NCBI GenBank assembly: GCA_041658255.1
Contig: JBBAAQ010000005.1
Coordinates: 1,544-65,543, forward strand
Length of the DNA: 64,000 nt
Direction of reading: 5' to 3'
DNA from: Candidatus Woesearchaeota archaeon
Lineage (GTDB): Archaea > Nanobdellota > Nanobdellia > Woesearchaeales > UBA9642
The position numbers and the translations under genes are program-made. Under the pieces are notes generated by a model. It was not told where the DNA came from, searched no databases, and saw only the letters and a list, made by a program, of their open reading frames with translations. Of this stretch, positions 3,652 through 64,000 are shown in pieces; the first letter of the stretch is position 1, and the number at the start of each line of letters is the position of its first letter.

Positions 3652-5832
3652 TTATTCAGACTGTTCGTCTTCGCTGCCCTTCAGTCCTTTACGGGTCCTT
3701 ATTTGGCCGATGATTTTCCCTTGGAGTTCTTCGGGGAGTTTTTCGAAGTTCTGGTCGATGACAAAGAAGTTTCCGCGTCCTTCAGTTGCAGACCGAAGAT
3801 CTGAACTTAATCCGAACATTTCACCGACAGGTAATTTACCCTTCACAACGATTTGTACACCTTCTTGCTGCATATCGAGGAGTTGTCCACGCTTCGAGGA
3901 AATCAATTTAGAGATCTCTCCCATGAAGTCAATTGGAGCTTCGAATTGAAGTACTTGGACTGGTTCAAACATTAATGGACCAGCAGTCATCATTGCACCA
4001 CGGATACTGTCACGAACAGCAGGATATACCTGCGCTGGTCCGCGATGGATTGCATCCTCATGCAATTTAACATCATCCAAAGTGACTTTGACGCCAATAC
4101 AAGGATCTTTTGCGAGTGGACCTTTAGTCATAACATCTTCAAACATGTCACAGACCATTTCCATGATTTCACCAATGTGAACGATACCGCGGGTTCCGTC
4201 AATGAGCATATTCCCTTTATAGACATCTTTGACTTTTCTCGACTCCTTAGTTTCCATGTTTGCTTCTTCAAGTACGCCCCAGAGGTCCTGTAAGTTCTTC
4301 TTCGGCCTACCTTCAGGAAGTGCTCCGGATTTTATTGCAGCACGTAATTCGTCGCTGAGTGGTTCTACACGGAAGTAAAATTTGTTGTGTTTGTTTGGAG
4401 ATTTACCTTCATAGACATCAGGACTTTTCTTTGTTATAGTTTCACGATAGACAACAATGGGCGGTGATGATTGGATTTCTACACCTTTCTCGCTCTTAAT
4501 CCTGTTTTCGATAATTTCTAAGTGAAGTTCACCCATTCCTGCCATCAAATGTTCGCCTGTTTCCTTATTAATTTCAATACGGATACTGGGGTCTTCTTTA
4601 GATATTTGGATGAGTACTTCTACAAGTTTTGGAAGATCGCTTGGGCGTTTTGCTTCAATGGCTTTAGTCATGACTGGTTCGAAAATGTGGGTGATTGCTT
4701 CGAATGGATCGATTTCACCAACAGAAACTGTCTCTCCCGGGTATGCGCCGCGAAGTCCAGAGACACCAATAATATTTCCTACAGGAATATTATCGACAAT
4801 TTCACGTTTAGCACCATTATAGATAAAGAGTTGTTGTACGCGAACATCAGTTTTTGCTCTATTCAATCGGACAGTTTCTCCTTTACGCATGGTTCCACTA
4901 AAGATTCGTCCAGCGCAGATTTCTCCTGCCTGCGGATCAATAGTCATTTTTGTAACAACAAAAACTGCAGGGCCTTTTGGGTCTGCATGCATAAGTGATT
5001 TTCCTTCTGGACTTTCAACATCTCCATGCCAAATTTTTGGAATGCGATATACTTGCGCTTGCCTTGGGTCAGGATGGTGTTTGATGACTGCGTCTAGGAT
5101 AACTTCGTGGAGCGGAGCTTTCTGTTTGAGTTCCTTCCATTTATCATTTTCATAGGCATCAATAATATCCTTAAAACTAATACTCTTCTTTTTCATGTAG
5201 GGAACAGAGAGTGCCCAATTATGGAATGCAGAGCCAAAACAAACACTACCATCAAGAACATTTACTTGCCATTTAGCGCCCATGTCTGGCGAGAGATCCA
5301 TGATAAGTTTATTCACATGATTAATGATTTTCATGAATCGTTCCTGCATTGCTTCAGGAGTAAGTTTGACTTCTTTGATAAGTCGGTCCACTTTGTTGAT
5401 AAAAAGTATTGGTTTAACACGTTCACGAAGTGCTTGTTTAAGTACTGTTTCTGTCTGCGGCATGATGCCTTCAACAGCGCAGCATAATACGATTGCACCA
5501 TCAACTGCGCGCATTGCACGGGTAACGTCACCACCAAAATCCACATGTCCTGGTGTATCGATTAAGTTAATCAAATATTCAGTATGTTCGATCATGTGTA
5601 CCATGGATACGTTTGCAGCGTCAATTGTAATACCACGTGTTTGTTCATCTTCGTGAAAATCCAGAGCGCATGCTTTACCGGCAAGATCCTGCGACATCAT
5701 TCCTGCACCCCATAAGAGATTATCTGAAAATGTTGTTTTTCCGTGATCAATATGCGCGCAGGTAGCAATATTTCTAATGTTTTCTACAACACCAGCAATT
5801 CTCATAACCTTATCAACAGTTTTTTCTCCCAT
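3652..5832 (-). CDS. fusA: translation elongation factor 2 (aEF-2)
   Basis: 726 aa. AHIDHGKTT, DTPGHVDF and NKVD GTPase motifs are present, and HEDAIHRGPAQ is the diphthamide-histidine loop typical of archaeal and eukaryotic EF-2. Confidence 0.97.
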   Translation of the reverse strand: MGEKTVDKVMRIAGVVENIRNIATCAHIDHGKTTFSDNLLWGAGMMSQDLAGKACALDFHEDEQTRGITIDAANVSMVHMIEHTEYLINLIDTPGHVDFGGDVTRAMRAVDGAIVLCCAVEGIMPQTETVLKQALRERVKPILFINKVDRLIKEVKLTPEAMQERFMKIINHVNKLIMDLSPDMGAKWQVNVLDGSVCFGSAFHNWALSVPYMKKKSISFKDIIDAYENDKWKELKQKAPLHEVILDAVIKHHPDPRQAQVYRIPKIWHGDVESPEGKSLMHADPKGPAVFVVTKMTIDPQAGEICAGRIFSGTMRKGETVRLNRAKTDVRVQQLFIYNGAKREIVDNIPVGNIIGVSGLRGAYPGETVSVGEIDPFEAITHIFEPVMTKAIEAKRPSDLPKLVEVLIQISKEDPSIRIEINKETGEHLMAGMGELHLEIIENRIKSEKGVEIQSSPPIVVYRETITKKSPDVYEGKSPNKHNKFYFRVEPLSDELRAAIKSGALPEGRPKKNLQDLWGVLEEANMETKESRKVKDVYKGNMLIDGTRGIVHIGEIMEMVCDMFEDVMTKGPLAKDPCIGVKVTLDDVKLHEDAIHRGPAQVYPAVRDSIRGAMMTAGPLMFEPVQVLQFEAPIDFMGEISKLISSKRGQLLDMQQEGVQIVVKGKLPVGEMFGLSSDLRSATEGRGNFFVIDQNFEKLPEELQGKIIGQIRTRKGLKGSEDEQSE

Positions 5833-17702: not shown

Positions 17703-19460
17703 ATGGTTCAAGGAAATCCAGTACAAAAGAGGGCGAGTAACACGCGTAATCAGGATAGTTATACGAATCATGCAATTTCAAATCATAATATCTCTGATCG
17801 TGTTATTTCTGATCGTGTTATTTCTGATCGTGTTATTTCTGATCGTGTTATCTCTGATCGTGTTATCTCTGATCGTGTTATCTCTGATCGTGTTATCTCT
17901 GATCGTGTTATCTCTGATCGTATCATCTCTCATCATGAGATTATTATTGTGACAAGAGTTATGATCATGTTTTTATGTTATATCTTAATCTCTAGCATCA
18001 GTATCCCACAATCCTCTGCGTTAAGTATGCAAACTGTGCAAAATTCTGCAGGGCTCTCTTCCAATAATCCTCTTCTTCCCATCACTGTTGCGACTGATGC
18101 AGAAGTTTTTTCAGTCGGAGATGTGGTTCATATTTATCTTTTTCCGAATGATCTCTTGTCGCAGAATAAGTCCCGCGAATCCCGGGATTCCTTGTTTGCA
18201 TCATTGTCCCTTGAGGTAACATTACAGGAGGACACGAGTTATTTATTAAAATATCTTGGAGCGCTCGATAATGATATTTCGTTTATTCCGCAGAAACCCG
18301 GAACCTATTATATTAAGGTATATTTGCCGAAGAGCTATTTAGACTATCAAAATATCGTGAATTCAAATATCGTGGATTCAAATACATTAGGTTCAATCAT
18401 AGTAGATTCTTCGCCTCCGGATTTAGGTTCCTCGATTGAAAAGACTTTTGTTGTGTACGCAGAGAGCGCTTTTGGCTGCAAGGAATATGCTGCCGGAGAG
18501 AATGTGGATATCTCCTTGAGGGACTATGCACCCTATCACGATAATGCAAGTTTGCCTGCGAGTGTTATGCTCATCTACAGCAACATAAATTATTCAGAAA
18601 AATTGCTTTACTCCCAGGAAATACGCGATGTCATATCCTATTCCTCTGCACGATTAGGAAAATATTCATTATATGCCGACGGGGATTATCTGGATTGCTT
18701 TGTTATTACGGACAAACCTGTTATCTCTCAATCAAATTCAGACGCTGCTGATGCAGGCACTCTCATTGTTGATGCTGGTGCTCTGAGTGTTGATTCAAGT
18801 ATTCCGGATTTAGATGCGCTGATCCAAAAAAGAGAAAAAAGGAATATGCCTGTTCTTGGGATATCACAAGCGCTCAATATTTCGAAAGATACAATCGCCG
18901 ATATGAACGCATTGAATAATGGACTCATCGCGGTAAGGATCTTGAAAAATAATTCGAATCTTACAGTCTTATCGGAGTTATTGGTTATCGATCTGAACAG
19001 ATCAATCGCTATACTGATTGGATTCAATGAGAGTGCTCCTGCTGATGATTTTACAATTGGCGTCAAGGATCAAGGTATTGTCTGGATATCTAAAAATCAT
19101 GAGACGCTCTATCTTTTTGATACGCAAACTGCAACACATATTTCTCGACGAGTTTTACCCTATAATGTCTCCAAAGGAGAATTAGGGACAGTACTATTTT
19201 TGAATACTTCTCTCACCAATGAAACTGGTAGGACTGAACTGCCGATAGATTTTGCATGGGATGTAGAGTTTGACAATCAACAATTTTATTTTTATAATCC
19301 ACAATTCGGTCAAACTTTTTCAGATGACGATATGAAAGTCAAGGAAGCATTCAGAAAACTCATGGATATGGACCAGATTCTCAGACCGCAGGATATTGCA
19401 CACCTCGATCTTGAAATCGACAGGGATTTTGTTAATGCTGATGAGATGAGCACCACATGA
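17703..19460 (+). CDS. bitopic surface protein with an N-terminal cytoplasmic ISDRV pentapeptide repeat array
   Basis: The ATG at 17703 is in frame with the track's TTG at 17685. It has 8 ISDRV units plus 2 degenerate units, then a TM segment (VMIMFLCYILISSISI), then ~480 extracellular residues with no recognised family. Confidence 0.75.
   Translation: MVQGNPVQKRASNTRNQDSYTNHAISNHNISDRVISDRVISDRVISDRVISDRVISDRVISDRVISDRVISDRIISHHEIIIVTRVMIMFLCYILISSISIPQSSALSMQTVQNSAGLSSNNPLLPITVATDAEVFSVGDVVHIYLFPNDLLSQNKSRESRDSLFASLSLEVTLQEDTSYLLKYLGALDNDISFIPQKPGTYYIKVYLPKSYLDYQNIVNSNIVDSNTLGSIIVDSSPPDLGSSIEKTFVVYAESAFGCKEYAAGENVDISLRDYAPYHDNASLPASVMLIYSNINYSEKLLYSQEIRDVISYSSARLGKYSLYADGDYLDCFVITDKPVISQSNSDAADAGTLIVDAGALSVDSSIPDLDALIQKREKRNMPVLGISQALNISKDTIADMNALNNGLIAVRILKNNSNLTVLSELLVIDLNRSIAILIGFNESAPADDFTIGVKDQGIVWISKNHETLYLFDTQTATHISRRVLPYNVSKGELGTVLFLNTSLTNETGRTELPIDFAWDVEFDNQQFYFYNPQFGQTFSDDDMKVKEAFRKLMDMDQILRPQDIAHLDLEIDRDFVNADEMSTT
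17790..17924 (+). repeat. 15-bp in-frame tandem repeat, 9 units (ATYTCTGATCGTGTT)
   Basis: Read directly. Units 2-4 carry ATT and units 1 and 5-9 carry ATC. A tenth degenerate unit extends to 17939. Confidence 0.95.
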
Positions 19461-48721: not shown

Positions 48722-48839
48722 TGGGTCGGATGGAATTTGAATCCATGACATCTACGGTTCGAAGAATGCGCGGCATTCTTTGCTGTTTGCCGCGACAAAC
48801 ACTTCAGCGTAGCGCTCTCCCAGGCTGAGCTACCGACCC
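48722..48839 (-). tRNA. tRNA-Phe (GAA) with a 44-nt intron at the canonical 37/38 position
   Basis: GGGUCGG/CCGACCC acceptor stem, GCUC-AGCCUGGGA-GAGC D arm, CUACG/CGUAG anticodon stem, anticodon GAA (complement of 48803-48805), AUGGA-UUCAAAU-UCCAU T arm and discriminator A. The intron spans 48758-48801, with anticodon GAAG pairing to intron CUUC. CCA is not encoded. Confidence 0.9.
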
Positions 48840-56527: not shown

Positions 56528-57079
56528 ATGACCATTAAATTATTCAGTATGGATTATGAAATAATGTTGTTATTGATCGGCGAGGAGCTTCACGGCAGAA
56601 TCATATCTAAGAAACTAAAAGCAAATCTCTCATCTGTGCAAAATCATCTCGAATTATTGAGAAATTTAAACGTCATCGATTATAAAACTGTCGGAAAAAA
56701 TAACATATATTATATCAAGAAATCATTGTCTGCACAAAAATATGTCTATAACGCTGAGAACTATAAGCTACTACGAATTATTGAGAAATATCCCTTCCTC
56801 GAGCCGCTTATCATGGATATTATCGGGCAAGATGTTAAGTTGATTATCTTGTTTGGAAGTTTTGCCAAATTAATTGCAAAAGATGACAGCGATATCGATG
56901 TGTACGTTGAAACGCAAAGGAAAGATTTAAAAAACTCTATGGAATCCATTAATTCAAGATTGAGTGTAAAGATCGGAGCGTTTGATATGCGCTCTTTACT
57001 TATAAAAGAGATTGTGAAAAATCACATCATACTCAAAGGTGTTGAGGATTATTATGACAGAATTGGATTTTTTAAATAA
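56528..57079 (+). CDS. winged-HTH plus minimal nucleotidyltransferase (MNT) protein
   Basis: LIILFGSFAKLIAKDDSDIDVYV gives the GS...DxD nucleotidyltransferase motif. The N-terminus is wHTH-like. Confidence 0.8.
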   Translation: MTIKLFSMDYEIMLLLIGEELHGRIISKKLKANLSSVQNHLELLRNLNVIDYKTVGKNNIYYIKKSLSAQKYVYNAENYKLLRIIEKYPFLEPLIMDIIGQDVKLIILFGSFAKLIAKDDSDIDVYVETQRKDLKNSMESINSRLSVKIGAFDMRSLLIKEIVKNHIILKGVEDYYDRIGFFK

Positions 57080-57539
57080 ATTAAAGAAAGAAGGAAAATT
57101 GGAATTAGTAGATCCATCACAAGAAATAAGCAAAGCATATCTTATTAAATCCGATAATTGCATAAGATCGTCTAAGTATTTATTTGAAAAAAATATTTAC
57201 GAAAATGCCGTGGCTGAAGCATACTTCGGGATATATAACTCCCTATTGTCTCTCTTATTTAAATGCGGTATCAAGTCAGAAACTCACGCCGGTTCCATAA
57301 TTTTGTTGAGAAGAATTTTTGGATTAGATGCCATAGCAAAAATAGTTTTTGATGCCAAAAAAGAAAGGATTGATAACCAGTATTATGTCACAGATAATAT
57401 TAATACAGCGATTAGTAGGGATTATTGTAAAAGATTTATCTCTTCTGCAGAAAAAATAGTTTTAGAGCTTCGATCATACGCGGCTCGTTTGACAGAAGAG
57501 AAAATTAATGTTTTAAGGAACAGATTTAAGAGAATATAG
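57054..57539 (+). CDS. HEPN-domain protein (partner of the MNT)
   Basis: The helical domain AYLIKSDNCIRSSKYLFEKNIYENAVAEAYFGIYNSLLSLL is typical of the HEPN family. It overlaps the MNT gene by 26 nt. Confidence 0.7.
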   Translation: MTELDFLNKLKKEGKLELVDPSQEISKAYLIKSDNCIRSSKYLFEKNIYENAVAEAYFGIYNSLLSLLFKCGIKSETHAGSIILLRRIFGLDAIAKIVFDAKKERIDNQYYVTDNINTAISRDYCKRFISSAEKIVLELRSYAARLTEEKINVLRNRFKRI

Positions 57540-59974: not shown

Positions 59975-61012
59975 TTATTCCCCATACGCTTCTTCAAGAA
60001 TCTTCTTCGCGTGCGCGTGTTCAAATTTCTTGCGGATGGGTTCGAGTAATGTATCTATTTCGACTGCGACCCCGTTCTTTAAATCTGTAGGATGGAGTTG
60101 TTTAGTCGTATATGCGTCGAGAAGTCCTTCTTTCGTGCTGAACATGAGTGGTCCGCCCCACTTTTCCGGCCGATCAATGATGAATGATTCGCTTTTGTCC
60201 ATTTTCTGCGTCATGATGATTGTTAATGCAAAATCAAGCACCCCATTTTCCGGATTTCCTTCTTCACAGTATGCATTCTTCAGTTTTTCTTTTATGGTTT
60301 TCAAATCATCGAGTAAATCGATCTTGGAGTTCTTGACTGAACTTGACATCTTCCCGTCTGCAGTAAGCCCGCGGATAAAGGGGGTCATAAGTTCAATTCG
60401 ATGTCTATAGCCGATTTGCGGCAGGTATTCACGCGCAAACACAAAGATTTTACGTTGATCAATACCACCCATCTGGATATCGACACCAAGATATTCTTCA
60501 TCAAGCGCTTGCATGATAGGATAGATTAATCCTGAAAGTTTTGGGTTATCACCCATCTTGACAACGTCTGATGCAGCGCGGGTACAATCATTGACTGAAG
60601 TGAGCGTAGACATCTTTAAGACGTCAAGAATATATTCTTTTTTGAGCTGAAAATCTGATCCTTTAATCATTTCGAATTTTTCAAGGTCTCCGCCCATGGA
60701 TTCAATCATTGCAGGGATAACGATTTCATAATACTTGTAGCGTTTTTCAAGCAATTCCCATGGGCAATTATCAAGCGCTCCATGGATATCCGCAAGGAGT
60801 ACTTTGACTTTGAATCCTGCTTTTAAAAAATCTGCAAGTTTTTGTACCCATGAAAAGTAGCCGATATGGGGTCTACCCGTAACTGATGTCCCAAGATATA
60901 CTGAGGGATTTTTTTTTGTTTCTAATAATAGTTTCAATTCGTCAAGCGTTATGATCTCCTGGCAGTTTCGGGAAATGATTGCGATTTTTTCATCAGTATT
61001 CATCATCATCAC
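59975..61012 (-). CDS. tyrS: tyrosyl-tRNA synthetase (archaeal type)
   Basis: GRPHIGY (HIGH), LLADIHGALDN, GGIDQRKIFVFAREYLP and KMSSS (KMSKS). Confidence 0.9.
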   Translation of the reverse strand: MMMMNTDEKIAIISRNCQEIITLDELKLLLETKKNPSVYLGTSVTGRPHIGYFSWVQKLADFLKAGFKVKVLLADIHGALDNCPWELLEKRYKYYEIVIPAMIESMGGDLEKFEMIKGSDFQLKKEYILDVLKMSTLTSVNDCTRAASDVVKMGDNPKLSGLIYPIMQALDEEYLGVDIQMGGIDQRKIFVFAREYLPQIGYRHRIELMTPFIRGLTADGKMSSSVKNSKIDLLDDLKTIKEKLKNAYCEEGNPENGVLDFALTIIMTQKMDKSESFIIDRPEKWGGPLMFSTKEGLLDAYTTKQLHPTDLKNGVAVEIDTLLEPIRKKFEHAHAKKILEEAYGE

Positions 61013-62093: not shown

Positions 62094-62780
62094 CTAGAAG
62101 AATTTCATCTTCAAAAATTCGTAGATATTGAATGTGAGAATGTTAACGCCATAGGTTAAAAAAAATTTGATGAAGAGGACGAGGAGGAGTAATTCGATGA
62201 GTTTTCCGATGAGAAGCCAGAGGAGGAATTTCCAGAAATTAAATTTGACGCTTCCTAAAAATACGGTGAGTGCTTCAATAGGAAAGAAGGGAATAAAGTT
62301 TCCTACGACGAGTAATGAGGTTCCCCATTTGGAGAATTTCTTGTTGAATGTTTTCACATCTTCTTTCAAAATCTTTTTGCGGACAAAACGCGAAAAAAAG
62401 AAGCCAATACCATAATTGACTACGCGTCCGAGTGAGACGGAAATCACTGCGACGAGTGTTGTCATCCACGGGTCTGCGCCGTCAAGAATATAGTAGACAT
62501 AAAAGAAATGCGCGGGAAGGCTCACAAGAATCGTGCTTCCAATAAAACTAATCATAAAGAGCCAGAAGAATGATTTTTGTGCGAGTTGATCTTTTGCAGT
62601 CATATAGGATTGTGAAATCCATGAATCCTTGTCTGCGTGAGTAATGATATAGGGTTGGAATGCAGCCATGATGAGCGCGATGGCGAGGATTCCTCCTGCA
62701 AAGAGGATAAGGCGCGAATATTCCTGCCAGAAGGATTTAGGTGGTGTTACTATTCGTTTACGTGAAGATATCTTCGACAT
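62094..62780 (-). CDS. DedA/VTT-domain (TVP38-like) membrane protein
   Basis: VVNYGIGFFFSRFVRKKILKEDVKTFNKKFSKWGTSLLVVGNFIPFFPIEALTVFLGS. The ATG at 62780 (MSKISSRK) is used because the track's longer ORF runs through the tRNA-like gene. Confidence 0.75.
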   Translation of the reverse strand: MSKISSRKRIVTPPKSFWQEYSRLILFAGGILAIALIMAAFQPYIITHADKDSWISQSYMTAKDQLAQKSFFWLFMISFIGSTILVSLPAHFFYVYYILDGADPWMTTLVAVISVSLGRVVNYGIGFFFSRFVRKKILKEDVKTFNKKFSKWGTSLLVVGNFIPFFPIEALTVFLGSVKFNFWKFLLWLLIGKLIELLLLVLFIKFFLTYGVNILTFNIYEFLKMKFF

Positions 62781-62844
62781 ACATTTACAATACTCCTCGA
62801 CTTTAAAAAGGTTATTTGATGGAATAAATAATAAAAGAAAGTGA

Positions 62845-62961
62845 TGGGGATGCTGGGATTCGAATTTCTGAGACGCCACTTTCAAACGTCTTCCCAGATC
62901 AACCGGTATCTTCTGGCACGTCATCGGCTTTCGCCTCATCGCTCCATTATCTGGAGCCGGT
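62845..62961 (-). tRNA. tRNA-Trp(CCA)-like gene portion (positions 27-73) with two introns; no 5' acceptor or D arm found
   Basis: ACCGG-CUCCAGA...CCGGU anticodon arm (anticodon is the complement of 62952-62954), with a 43-nt insert at 62907-62949. The T arm CUGGG/UUCGAAU/CCCAG is interrupted by a 28-nt insert (62865-62892) that folds into a perfect hBHBh' motif. The 3' acceptor is CAUCCCC plus A. No GGGGAUG lies upstream. Confidence 0.5.
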
Positions 62962-63064
62962 TATTCTAGCCAGGTTAGTCTTTAATTTGGTATATTATAT
63001 TTAGTTTTATATGAAATAAACGTCAGGAATTTAAATACTCTTGCGCAAGCCTTTATTGAATAAG

Positions 63065-64000
63065 ATGAGAGCAATAAAAGACCCAAGAAACCCACAAAAC
63101 AGTGTAAAAAACACCAAAGACTATATCGCCCTAGCCGATATAAGTACCGAACAAAAAGAGCTATTAAGCGCGTACTTTAGGTCCTTAATGGCGTCGGAAG
63201 GCAACAAGACAAAAAGCGCTCATACAGAGAGGTGCCATATTCGCTGTAAAAGGCTTTGCAGAATATGTAAAAAAACCATTACGAGAGGTAATTAAGGACG
63301 ATATCATAAATTACACTATTCACCTAAGAGAACGAGGTCTAAAAGAGTCCACTAGAGAATTCTACAAGCTAAGAATAAAACTATTCTATAAATGGGTAGA
63401 TGGAGGATATACGTCTAGAGTTGATTGGATAAAAAAAACGGACATAAAAAAGGACTTATCAGAAACAGACCTGATACAACCAACAGAAATACGTAAAATG
63501 GTTGAAATCTGTGAGAATGCCAGAGATAAAGCACTAGTAAGCGGGCTATATGAAAGTGGGGTCAGAATCTCAGAATGGTTAGGTGTAAAAATCAAAGATA
63601 TAATATTTGATGATTACGGCGCAAAGATAAAGGTAACAGGAAAGACAGGAACAAGACAGATAAGACTAATCGACTCAGTACCTTACCTCATAGAATGAAT
63701 AAATCAGCATCCATACAAAACAGATAATGGTAGGTACTTATTCATTAATTTTGCATCAAACTATTATGGAAGAAACCTATTCCTAGGAACTGTAGGAACA
63801 ATGCTAAGAAAATACGCGAAAAGAACAGGAGTAAACAAAAAAATATATCCACACTTATTAAGACATAGTAGATTAACGTGGTTGGCCCAAAGAGAAAACT
63901 TTAATGAAAGAGATCTAAGAATATTCGCGGGGTGGTCAGCATCATCAGACATGCCCAACACATACCTGCACTATAGTGAGGAAGAAGTAGATAAAAAACT
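63065..64000 (+). pseudogene. tyrosine recombinase/integrase (XerC/D-phage integrase family), disrupted; runs off the right edge
   Basis: LVSGLYESGVRISE (catalytic Arg), HLLRHS and NTYLHY motifs. A frame change is needed within the A5 run at 63211-63215, and an in-frame TGA sits at 63696-63698 (PYLIE*INQHP). Confidence 0.8.

Follow-up and report, generated by a model that had tools for sequence, protein, structure and literature searches.

A 5'-truncated tRNA-Trp gene in a Woesearchaeota contig as the probable relic left by an integrative element that splits its target in the D-loop

Background

What does a tRNA gene represent when it lacks its 5' end, keeps two well-formed introns and lies next to an integrase gene? 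The question is raised by positions 62845-62977 (minus strand) of a 64,000-nucleotide (nt) stretch of contig JBBAAQ010000005.1, assembly GCA_041658255.1 of Candidatus Woesearchaeota archaeon (contig positions 1,544 to 65,543), which we call the window. An original prediction, made from the letters of the window, left two explanations side by side: the 3' piece of a split tRNA whose parts are joined in trans, or the 3' portion of a tRNA gene displaced to the edge of the element that carries the integrase. Our analysis sides with the latter, given a 4.4-kb insertion of low GC (guanine plus cytosine) content, 98% identity of the fragment to a native gene and recurrence of the arrangement in four genomes. 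The fragment is very probably an inert relic on the attR side of an integrated element, namely the native 3' portion (nt 13-73) of the original tRNA-Trp(CCA) of the host. In itself the fragment is ordinary, and what is new is the element family.

Results

Anatomy of the tRNA-Trp fragment

The minus strand of 62977-62845 comprises tRNA-Trp(CCA) positions 13-73 plus two introns, and nt 1-12 alone are missing. In order it reads UAACCUGGCUAGAAUA (nt 13-26), ACCGG-CUCCAG, a 43-nt insert, A-CCGGU-UGAU-CUGGG, a 28-nt insert and UUCGAAU-CCCAG-CAUCCCC-A. Its parts are as follows, where L numbers denote the loci and contigs used for comparison and BHB stands for bulge-helix-bulge.

62962-62977, minus strand: D-loop, 3' strand of the D stem and nt 26 (tRNA-Trp positions 13-26), collinear with the intact genes of relatives
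62968-62976, minus strand: attachment (att) core AACCTGGCT, 9 nt, in the tRNA D-loop at about nt 14-21; proposed crossover region of the integrase family
62951-62961, minus strand: exon with the 5' strand of the anticodon stem (ACCGG) and the loop CUCCAG to G37; anticodon CCA; identical to L001
62908-62950, minus strand: anticodon-loop intron at 37/38, 43 nt; relaxed BHB, homologous to the L001 intron
62893-62907, minus strand: exon with A38, the 3' strand of the anticodon stem (CCGGU), the variable region UGAU and the 5' strand of the T stem (CUGGG), read from the sequence
62865-62892, minus strand: T-arm intron at 53/54, 28 nt; canonical hBHBh' motif
62845-62864, minus strand: exon with the T loop UUCGAAU, the 3' strands of the T stem (CCCAG) and acceptor stem (CAUCCCC) and the discriminator A, read from the sequence

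From ACCGG-CUCCAG onwards, the original prediction had placed the exons and inserts at these same positions, and the sequence confirms them. It had also stated that neither a 5' acceptor strand nor a D arm precedes them. The first part stands (no GGGGATG occurs within 300 nt) while the second does not: because homology to intact tRNA-Trp begins at U13, the gene retains its D-loop and 3' D-stem strand and lacks nt 1-12 alone. The 19-nt sequence GACUAACCUGGCUAGAAUA, which had been taken for a leader, matches positions 10-26 of the intact tRNA-Trp of relatives (GUAUAACCUGGCUAGAAYA; L001, L004-L008) base for base, and so is the D-loop with the 3' D-stem strand. A third intron or a permuted gene was ruled out, as the GGGGATG acceptor strand is absent within 300 nt on either side.

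ARAGORN, which had been proposed as a check, calls zero tRNAs in the window, and Rfam finds none at the fragment locus even at E = 10. Both misses are expected because the gene is 5'-truncated and has two introns. When the spliced fragment is given a hypothetical GGGGATGTAGTA 5' exon, ARAGORN calls tRNA-Trp(cca); without that exon the spliced fragment gives no call.

A complete tRNA-Trp gene beyond a 4.4-kb insertion

The window corresponds to contig k141_249351 (75.6 kb) of ENA assembly ERZ27247322, with 0 mismatches over 16,445 nt. That contig is readable to window-equivalent position 73698 via the extension L051, and our contig searches cover these 73.7 kb. A complete tRNA-Trp(CCA), which we call Trp-2, lies outside the window at window-equivalent 67476-67335 (minus strand), 4.4 kb past the fragment. 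It consists of three exons, GGGGACGTAGTATAA-(22 nt)-CTTGGCTAGAATGGCTGGCTCCAG-(46 nt)-ACCAGCGGATCCGCGTTCAAATCGCGGCGTCCCCA, separated by introns of 22 nt (D-loop, 15/16) and 46 nt (anticodon), with predicted exon junctions GUAUAA/CUUGGCUAG and CUCCAG/ACCAGC. ARAGORN calls it tRNA-Trp(cca) of 74 nt once both inserts are removed; the unspliced gene is missed by ARAGORN, and by Rfam with E-value thresholds. An independent complete tRNA-Trp gene had been named beforehand as the finding that would speak against a split gene, and it is found on the same contig.

The TyrRS gene (59975-61012, 2 kb from the fragment) recovered 48 loci from metagenome-assembled genomes (MAGs) of Woesearchaeota and Nanoarchaeota. 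At the syntenic position, five of these relatives (L004-L008) carry a tRNA-Trp(CCA) that lacks introns. L001 is the closest relative, with 82% TyrRS identity; its tRNA-Trp, GGGAATGTAGTATAACCTGGCTAGAATAACCGGCTCCAG-(47-nt intron)-ACCGGTTGATCTGGGTTCGAATCCCAGCATTCCCA, has no T-arm insert. The fragment matches this gene from U13 on, including the homologous anticodon intron, with CCAAATTAAAGAC in the window against GGGAATGTAGTA in L001. The gene order in the relatives is p436-p773-tRNATrp-VTT-p194-p76-TyrRS, against p436-p773-amidase-Trp2-(p429, TPR364, p78, integrase)-fragment-VTT-p194-p76-TyrRS in the window genome. The four genes p429, TPR364, p78 and integrase have no tblastn match in the loci of the five syntenic relatives, and the insert between Trp-2 and the fragment has 31.4% GC versus 38.2% in both flanks.

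The exons of the fragment share 98% identity with the native L001 gene and only 78% with Trp-2; Trp-2, in turn, is 90% identical to the element-borne tRNA-Trp of L085. We therefore take the fragment to be the native copy and Trp-2 to be derived from the element. The region upstream of Trp-2 resembles that of the native L001 gene, with TTTTATAAATA ... GATTCTGCA in both. The native downstream neighbour is the following gene, which stands after tRNA-Trp in L001, L004 and L007, and after the truncated copy in L052.

62094-62786, minus strand: VTT-domain membrane protein (Pfam VTT_dom)

As called in the ENA and Logan records (281 aa), the VTT open reading frame (ORF) starts inside the fragment, and its first ~51 codons (62787-62939, minus strand) read through tRNA and intron; translation probably begins at the ATG at 62786 instead. 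In L001, a 14-nt copy of the tRNA-Trp 3' end (TCCCAGCATTCCCA) follows the gene at a distance of ~95 nt (L001 6623-6730), and an inverted GGGAATGCT stands between the two. This copy looks like the scar of a different element that targets the 3' end.

The integrase pseudogene and the right end of the element

Two further features adjoin the fragment on its 5' side.

62978-63064, no strand assigned: right end of the element, an AT-rich spacer between the fragment and the integrase start, with a AAATATAATATA box at 62991-63002
63065-64000, continuing to window-equivalent 64265, plus strand: tyrosine integrase pseudogene (Phage_integrase family) with a frameshift and a TGA

The integrase starts 88 nt from the fragment on the opposite strand. 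Its reading frame shifts at about 63224-63236 and is interrupted by a TGA at 63696-63698 (TGG>TGA), and both lesions are also present in the Logan assembly. When repaired, it encodes a 400-aa product, 97-100% of whose length aligns with intact homologues of 394-427 aa. The catalytic HxxR and Y are present, and the column of the TGA holds W in 5 of the 6 homologues. Decoding of TGA as Trp was ruled out, as TGA ends 4 of the 37 long ORFs and the tRNA anticodon is CCA. The integrase of the window is a dead copy, while the other members of its family are intact. We also observed that this family (63065-64000, continued in L051 to 10768) has a conserved C-terminal extension past the catalytic tyrosine, with a CxRC...YCNCG zinc-ribbon motif and a charged tail.

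The AAATATAATATA box upstream of the fragment, pointed out in the original prediction, does exist (63002-62991, minus strand), but it belongs to an AT-rich stretch that also precedes the divergent integrase gene. Part of the spacer, AATATAATAT, is found at a similar distance from the core in L052 and L085, where this arm belongs to a terminal inverted repeat pair. The readable contig (73.7 kb) contains no partner repeat for the right arm of the window, and homologues of its cargo genes p78, TPR364 and p429 are absent from the other elements.

Related elements split tRNA-Trp at the same point

Intact integrases 41-62% identical to that of the window (tblastn) are encoded in four other Woesearchaeota genomes, at L052, L054, L058 and L059. 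In L052 (GCA_014874255.1), L054/L055, L058 and L059/L060 a truncated tRNA-Trp starting at (U)AACCUGGCUAGAA diverges from the integrase start, and the truncated copies of the window, L052, L054, L058 and L059 all begin at the core or 1-2 nt around it. The next gene past the truncated tRNA is VTT in L052, and in L054 it is the TyrRS neighbourhood that follows. Two further integrase homologues (L057, L061) are located elsewhere.

By walking along contigs we traced both ends of two elements, L085 and L087. In each, the order runs from the native promoter and a 5' fragment (nt 1-22) through one inverted repeat, a complete tRNA-Trp, the cargo and the integrase to a second inverted repeat and the 3' fragment. 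The core (8-9 nt) is duplicated at both element ends and is all that the two fragments have in common; neither junction holds a complete gene, and the complete tRNA-Trp is a separate one, 70-115 nt inward of the left end. The left end of L085 reads GGGGACGTAGTATAACCTGGCT (5' fragment), TATTTGGGGTTTCCCATATTATATT, a spacer of about 70 nt and the complete tRNA-Trp, and its right end reads integrase, ...AATATAATATGGCGTTTCCCAAATA, AACCTGGCTAGAAC... (3' fragment) and then VTT. The 9-nt AACCTGGCT is the only sequence common to its 5' and 3' fragments, and the arms beside the core are inverted repeats with 20 of 25 positions identical. Its cargo tRNA-Trp has a 33-nt D-loop intron, which is inside the core as is that of Trp-2, and an 80-nt anticodon intron; the cargo of 11 kb includes an AAA_25 helicase, a Dcm methylase and others. 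In L087 the 5' fragment is decayed, the arms are imperfect inverted repeats and the complete tRNA-Trp is without a D-loop intron.

The cargo of L087 (10001-16222) includes defence genes that travel with a tRNA-Trp element: an ABC-three-component system (CTD6 and MC2 domains), a Dcm methylase together with a HaeIII-type restriction enzyme, and a DUF2779 protein. The tRNA-Trp of this element (5275-5409) is one C short in the 3' acceptor strand (CGTCCC-A) versus the native 3' fragment at 18647 (CGTCCCCA), which points to an assembly error or to a cargo gene with a slight defect.

Elements and scars of this family would be recognizable by TATAACCTGGCT without a following AGAA and by AACCTGGCTAGAA without a preceding GTAGTAT. 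Three loci have a tRNA-Trp 5' fragment 70-100 nt upstream of a complete tRNA-Trp (L005 3828-3930, L006 6981-7067 and L079 1604-1708), and the element itself is absent between the two in all three. In L079 the 5' fragment is followed by an arm-like sequence, a complete tRNA-Trp with a D-loop intron and then directly by the native p194, with no element left, which suggests that the host kept the tRNA of the element after losing the element. The empty site would read GGGGATGTAGTATAACCTGGCTAGAATAACCGG. We propose an attP in which the arms CCCAAATA and TATTTGGG flank AACCTGGCT, and the D-arm of tRNA-Trp as attB.

Introns of the fragment and of Trp-2

The T-arm intron of the fragment agrees in its pairs, bulges and restored junction with the hBHBh' motif at 53/54 described in the original prediction. 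Helix h (UUGA/UCGA) and helix H (UCUG/CAGA) each have 4 of 4 pairs, GGA and AAU bulge out, and h' is 7 bp long. Cutting after the second bulge nucleotide gives exactly the junction CUGGG/UUCGAAU, and the predicted exon junction sequence is CUGGG/UUCGAAUCCCAGCAUCCCC. Minimum-free-energy folding favours the mature T stem over the BHB, which makes z-scores of folding energy uninformative, and motif checks and covariation were used in their place. The same intron position is present in three complete metagenomic tRNA-Trp genes (L065, L067 and L076), whose h' sequences are unrelated and yet paired; because the position recurs in complete genes with such helices, the BHB of the fragment is more than chance. 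The T arm of L065 is exactly that of the fragment, L067 and L076 differ by one T-stem base, and the acceptor strand CATCCCC is common to all. Since T arm, acceptor strand and T-arm intron position match, the fragment appears to descend from a working tRNA-Trp gene of this type.

The anticodon intron, at 37/38 as had been reported, has a relaxed H helix, CUCC/GAAG, with 3 of 4 pairs (one C-A mismatch) and an enlarged 5' bulge. It contains a guide UGGAG, a D'-like AUGA, a hairpin GGC-GAAA-GCC and a C'-like CGAUGA, and its core reads UGGAG-CG-AUGA-GGCGAAAGCC-GAUGA. The kink-turn (K-turn)-like GAUGA...GAUGA hairpin noted earlier is thus present, and a related form occurs in 20 distinct anticodon introns that have the pattern CUCCAG-N2-5-UGGAG-NN-(N)NGA-hairpin-(C/U)RAUGA in common. 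In these 20 introns the nucleotide pairing with C34 is the fifth upstream of the D'-like box (N+5), and N+5 is the rule for box C/D methylation. With its boxes, potential K-turn/K-loop and N+5 spacing the intron has the sequence features of a tRNA-Trp-type box C/D guide, and it may act as one. We take both introns of the fragment to be real BHB introns inherited from a once-functional gene.

The D-loop intron of Trp-2 forms an HBh' BHB. Scanning metagenomes for a 5' exon followed by a 10-40-nt insert in the D-loop yielded 22 loci, 16 of them distinct. In these 16 sequences the intron is always A-hairpin-GUACA(N) at 15/16 with an invariant helix GUAU/GUAC, the three inner-helix (h') pairs all show double changes, and 99% of cells are paired; the covariation score was reached by 0 of 500 shuffles. 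We considered that the insert of Trp-2 might be a by-product of the recombination junction, and this is partly rejected, as 16 distinct tRNA-Trp genes from metagenomes have an intron of the same family. None of these 16 loci has the integrase or its cargo within about 5 kb; one of them, L079, is nevertheless an element scar. Judging from the covariation, the D-loop insert is probably a normal spliceable intron carried by the element.

Five tRNA-Trp genes (L064, L071, L073, L075 and L077) were observed with four or five inserts, placed in the D-loop, after the D arm, in the anticodon loop, in the variable region or T stem, and in the T loop. They are among the most fragmented cis-spliced tRNA genes of this analysis and escape ARAGORN-type searches. 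The occurrence of up to four or five inserts in tRNA-Trp of these DPANN archaea helps explain incomplete tRNA sets of MAGs (PMC5829648).

Discussion

Origin of the fragment

We propose that a tyrosine-recombinase element recombined with the D-loop of the host tRNA-Trp gene, where the D-stem arms flank the core AACCTGGCT. This would have cut the 3' portion off from its promoter and 5' end, leaving it presumably without expression. The element family would leave the target gene split and bring a complete tRNA-Trp just inside its other end, and in the window genome the replacement would be Trp-2. The element would since have decayed to about 4.4 kb, with a broken integrase and a left end that was probably lost. 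A likely route for this loss is a deletion of what lay between the native 5' fragment and the 5' exon GGGGACGTAGTATAA of the cargo tRNA, which has the same sequence; Trp-2 would thereby have come to stand behind the native promoter.

Several observations weigh against this scenario or qualify it. Neither a 5' fragment nor a left inverted repeat is present in the window contig (73.7 kb), and for this reason the exact architecture of the window copy is drawn from its relatives and from the postulated deletion. The two junctions of the contig have only TAA/AA and scattered identities in common, the left end being apparently deleted. The 5' acceptor strand of Trp-2, GGGGACG, mismatches the 3' strand of the fragment (CAUCCCC needs GGGGAUG), so the element rather than the native gene may have supplied the 5' exon of Trp-2. 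The fragment is without any decay, its stems, T loop and both BHBs being intact as in a gene piece still in use, and an AT-rich TATA-like box about 15-25 nt upstream makes transcription possible. The search for a 5' piece covered the 73.7 kb of this one contig of the genome. Exact-pattern scans with the 3' exons of the fragment gave no match in genome, metagenome and viral contig collections, among which the source genome is not included.

The intact exons, both BHB introns and the TATA-like box would also fit the 3' gene of a trans-spliced tRNA-Trp, in which a separately transcribed 5' piece anneals to the leader and an endonuclease and a ligase join the two. A 5' exon GGGGAUGUAGUA(U) would then join ...AACCUGGCUAGAAUAACCGG, and the 5' piece would contain GGGGATGTAGTATAA and a trailer complementary to 62978-63000. 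A GGGGATG+GTAGTA piece is absent from the 73.7 kb, however, where TAGTATAACCTGGCT (up to 2 mismatches) occurs only in Trp-2, and the reverse complements of the 19-mer and of the 40 nt upstream are likewise absent. What had been taken for a leader is D-arm sequence, and the 5' boundary (nt 12-16) does not allow a BHB to be drawn, since GACU versus GUAU gives only 2 of 4 pairs, both wobble; judged by eye, the self-pairing of the core is an uninterrupted but imperfect helix rather than a BHB. With a complete tRNA-Trp(CCA) 4.4 kb away on the same contig, each testable defining feature of a split gene (a 5' piece, a complementary leader with a BHB, the lack of an intact gene) failed, and we regard a split gene as highly improbable here. 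The native fragments of L085 and L087 are flanked by inverted repeats which, if transcribed, would provide a complementary trailer and leader as in known split tRNAs. Trans-splicing of these fragments through the repeats is unsupported, as no BHB can be drawn.

Prokaryotic genomes often contain fragments of tRNA genes (PMC9897764); here the integrase is dead and the window contig retains no pair of direct repeats. All this would suit a random 5'-truncated pseudogene, or a fragment produced by rearrangement or duplication, without any relation to the integrase. It is unlikely, though, that chance placed the truncation within 1-2 nt of that in four other genomes whose only common feature is a homologous integrase, and at the very core that is duplicated at both element ends in L085 and L087. 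An assembly chimera deserves a thought as well, because repeated tRNA-like sequence in a metagenome can mislead assemblers, and the junction of tRNA and element would then be an artefact. We find this scarcely credible: ENA ERZ27247322 and Logan SRR8449812 (different accessions that may share reads) are identical from the fragment through integrase and cargo to the 3' end of Trp-2, and the same type of junction is found in assemblies of four other genomes, each from a different sample.

Comparison with known systems

The integration of archaeal tyrosine-recombinase elements is known to restore an uninterrupted tRNA gene, with targets in the anticodon arm, the T arm, the 3' end and the 5' half (pTN3-like) (PMC8371274). 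As in the pNOB8-type arrangement and tRNA-targeting islands (Williams 2002; PMC8371274), the window has an integrase beside a partial tRNA copy, an insertion absent from relatives, a foreign base composition and an integrase gene that is not partitioned. In those systems, however, the crossover is in the anticodon loop, T loop, 3' end or 5' half and the tRNA is always rebuilt, whereas here it would be in the D-loop, 5' and 3' fragments are left in L085 and L087, and function would come from a separate complete cargo tRNA-Trp. The problem of annotating tRNA fragments has been discussed (PMC9897764).

The closest precedent for the wider picture appears to be the tRNA-Thr(GGU) locus of Caldiarchaeum subterraneum (Sugahara et al. 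2012, PMC3293823). There, too, a recombinase insertion lies between a tRNA fragment and a complete tRNA that has one intron more than the ancestral gene, and a mobile element is modelled as delivering the intron. Unlike here, the 5' fragment is displaced and the gene is reconstituted via an intron-containing attP. In the window it is the 3' fragment that is displaced (both in L085 and L087), the gene is a tRNA-Trp of a DPANN archaeon, and the replacement would be a whole gene.

The split tRNAs of Nanoarchaeum equitans, Caldivirga maquilingensis and Staphylothermus (PMC3218864, PMC4033280) resemble our locus in the lone tRNA piece, the upstream AT-rich box and the use of BHB processing, and our host belongs to the wider Nanoarchaeota/DPANN group. 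The differences are that a partner piece, a complementary leader or trailer and a boundary BHB were not found in the 73.7 kb, and that an intact gene is present.

The intron of Haloferax volcanii pre-tRNA-Trp guides Cm34 and Um39 (PMC4090602). It is like the anticodon intron described here in the 37/38 site, a K-turn/K-loop C'/D'-like pair and an anticodon-loop guide with C34 at N+5 (predicted here), while our introns are much shorter (43-47 nt) with one recognisable box pair and a degenerate D' (AUGA/AGGA), and a guide for U39 was not identified in them. The multi-intron tRNAs of Thermoproteales and ARMAN (PMC5829648, PMC3239211) likewise have D-loop 15/16 and T-arm 53/54 introns with strict or relaxed BHB, several per gene; ours differ in the Woesearchaeota lineage and in that one intron family sits exactly within the att core of a mobile-element family.

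An element family and its decay

We are inclined, with some reserve, to see behind these loci a family of integrative elements of Woesearchaeota whose attB is the tRNA-Trp D-arm: the D-loop would be the overlap region, and the D-stem arms would provide the binding sites. Such elements would split the gene without rebuilding it, and the host would come to depend on the cargo tRNA-Trp, often with a BHB intron in the core. Later deletions (the window, L079 and perhaps L005/L006) would leave the tRNA of the element and its intron, and orphan fragments with inverted-repeat flanks would be raw material for split tRNA genes. If true, this would be a directly observed route of tRNA replacement and intron gain. 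What is new is that the target lies in the D-loop, that the gene is split without restoration while a complete tRNA comes as cargo, and that decay stages form a series within one DPANN clade.

The loci can be read as natural stages of one process, from the full elements L085 and L087 through the decayed element of the window to the bare scars L079, L005 and L006. In this process a mobile element would break an essential single-copy tRNA gene, substitute its own copy and leave an intron. Randau and Söll reportedly raised the question of whether introns protect att sites, on which the process bears. It also bears on the origin of archaeal tRNA introns and split tRNAs (Sugahara 2012), and the D-loop is added to the tRNA sublocations used by integrases. 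For annotation, the two-intron fragment that resembles half of a split gene is to be corrected to a probable relic, with the real tRNA-Trp 4.4 kb away.

Other observations in the window

A tRNA-Phe(GAA) with a 47-nt intron at the canonical position is located at 48722-48839 (minus strand); it is the only tRNA that Rfam finds in the window (52 bits), and ARAGORN misses it. Its orthologue has a 12-nt intron in L003 and none in L004. Adjacent genes of a Polbeta-type nucleotidyltransferase and a HEPN protein (weak Pfam matches) at 56528-57539 (plus strand), just upstream of a YchF-like GTPase, form a probable toxin-antitoxin module.

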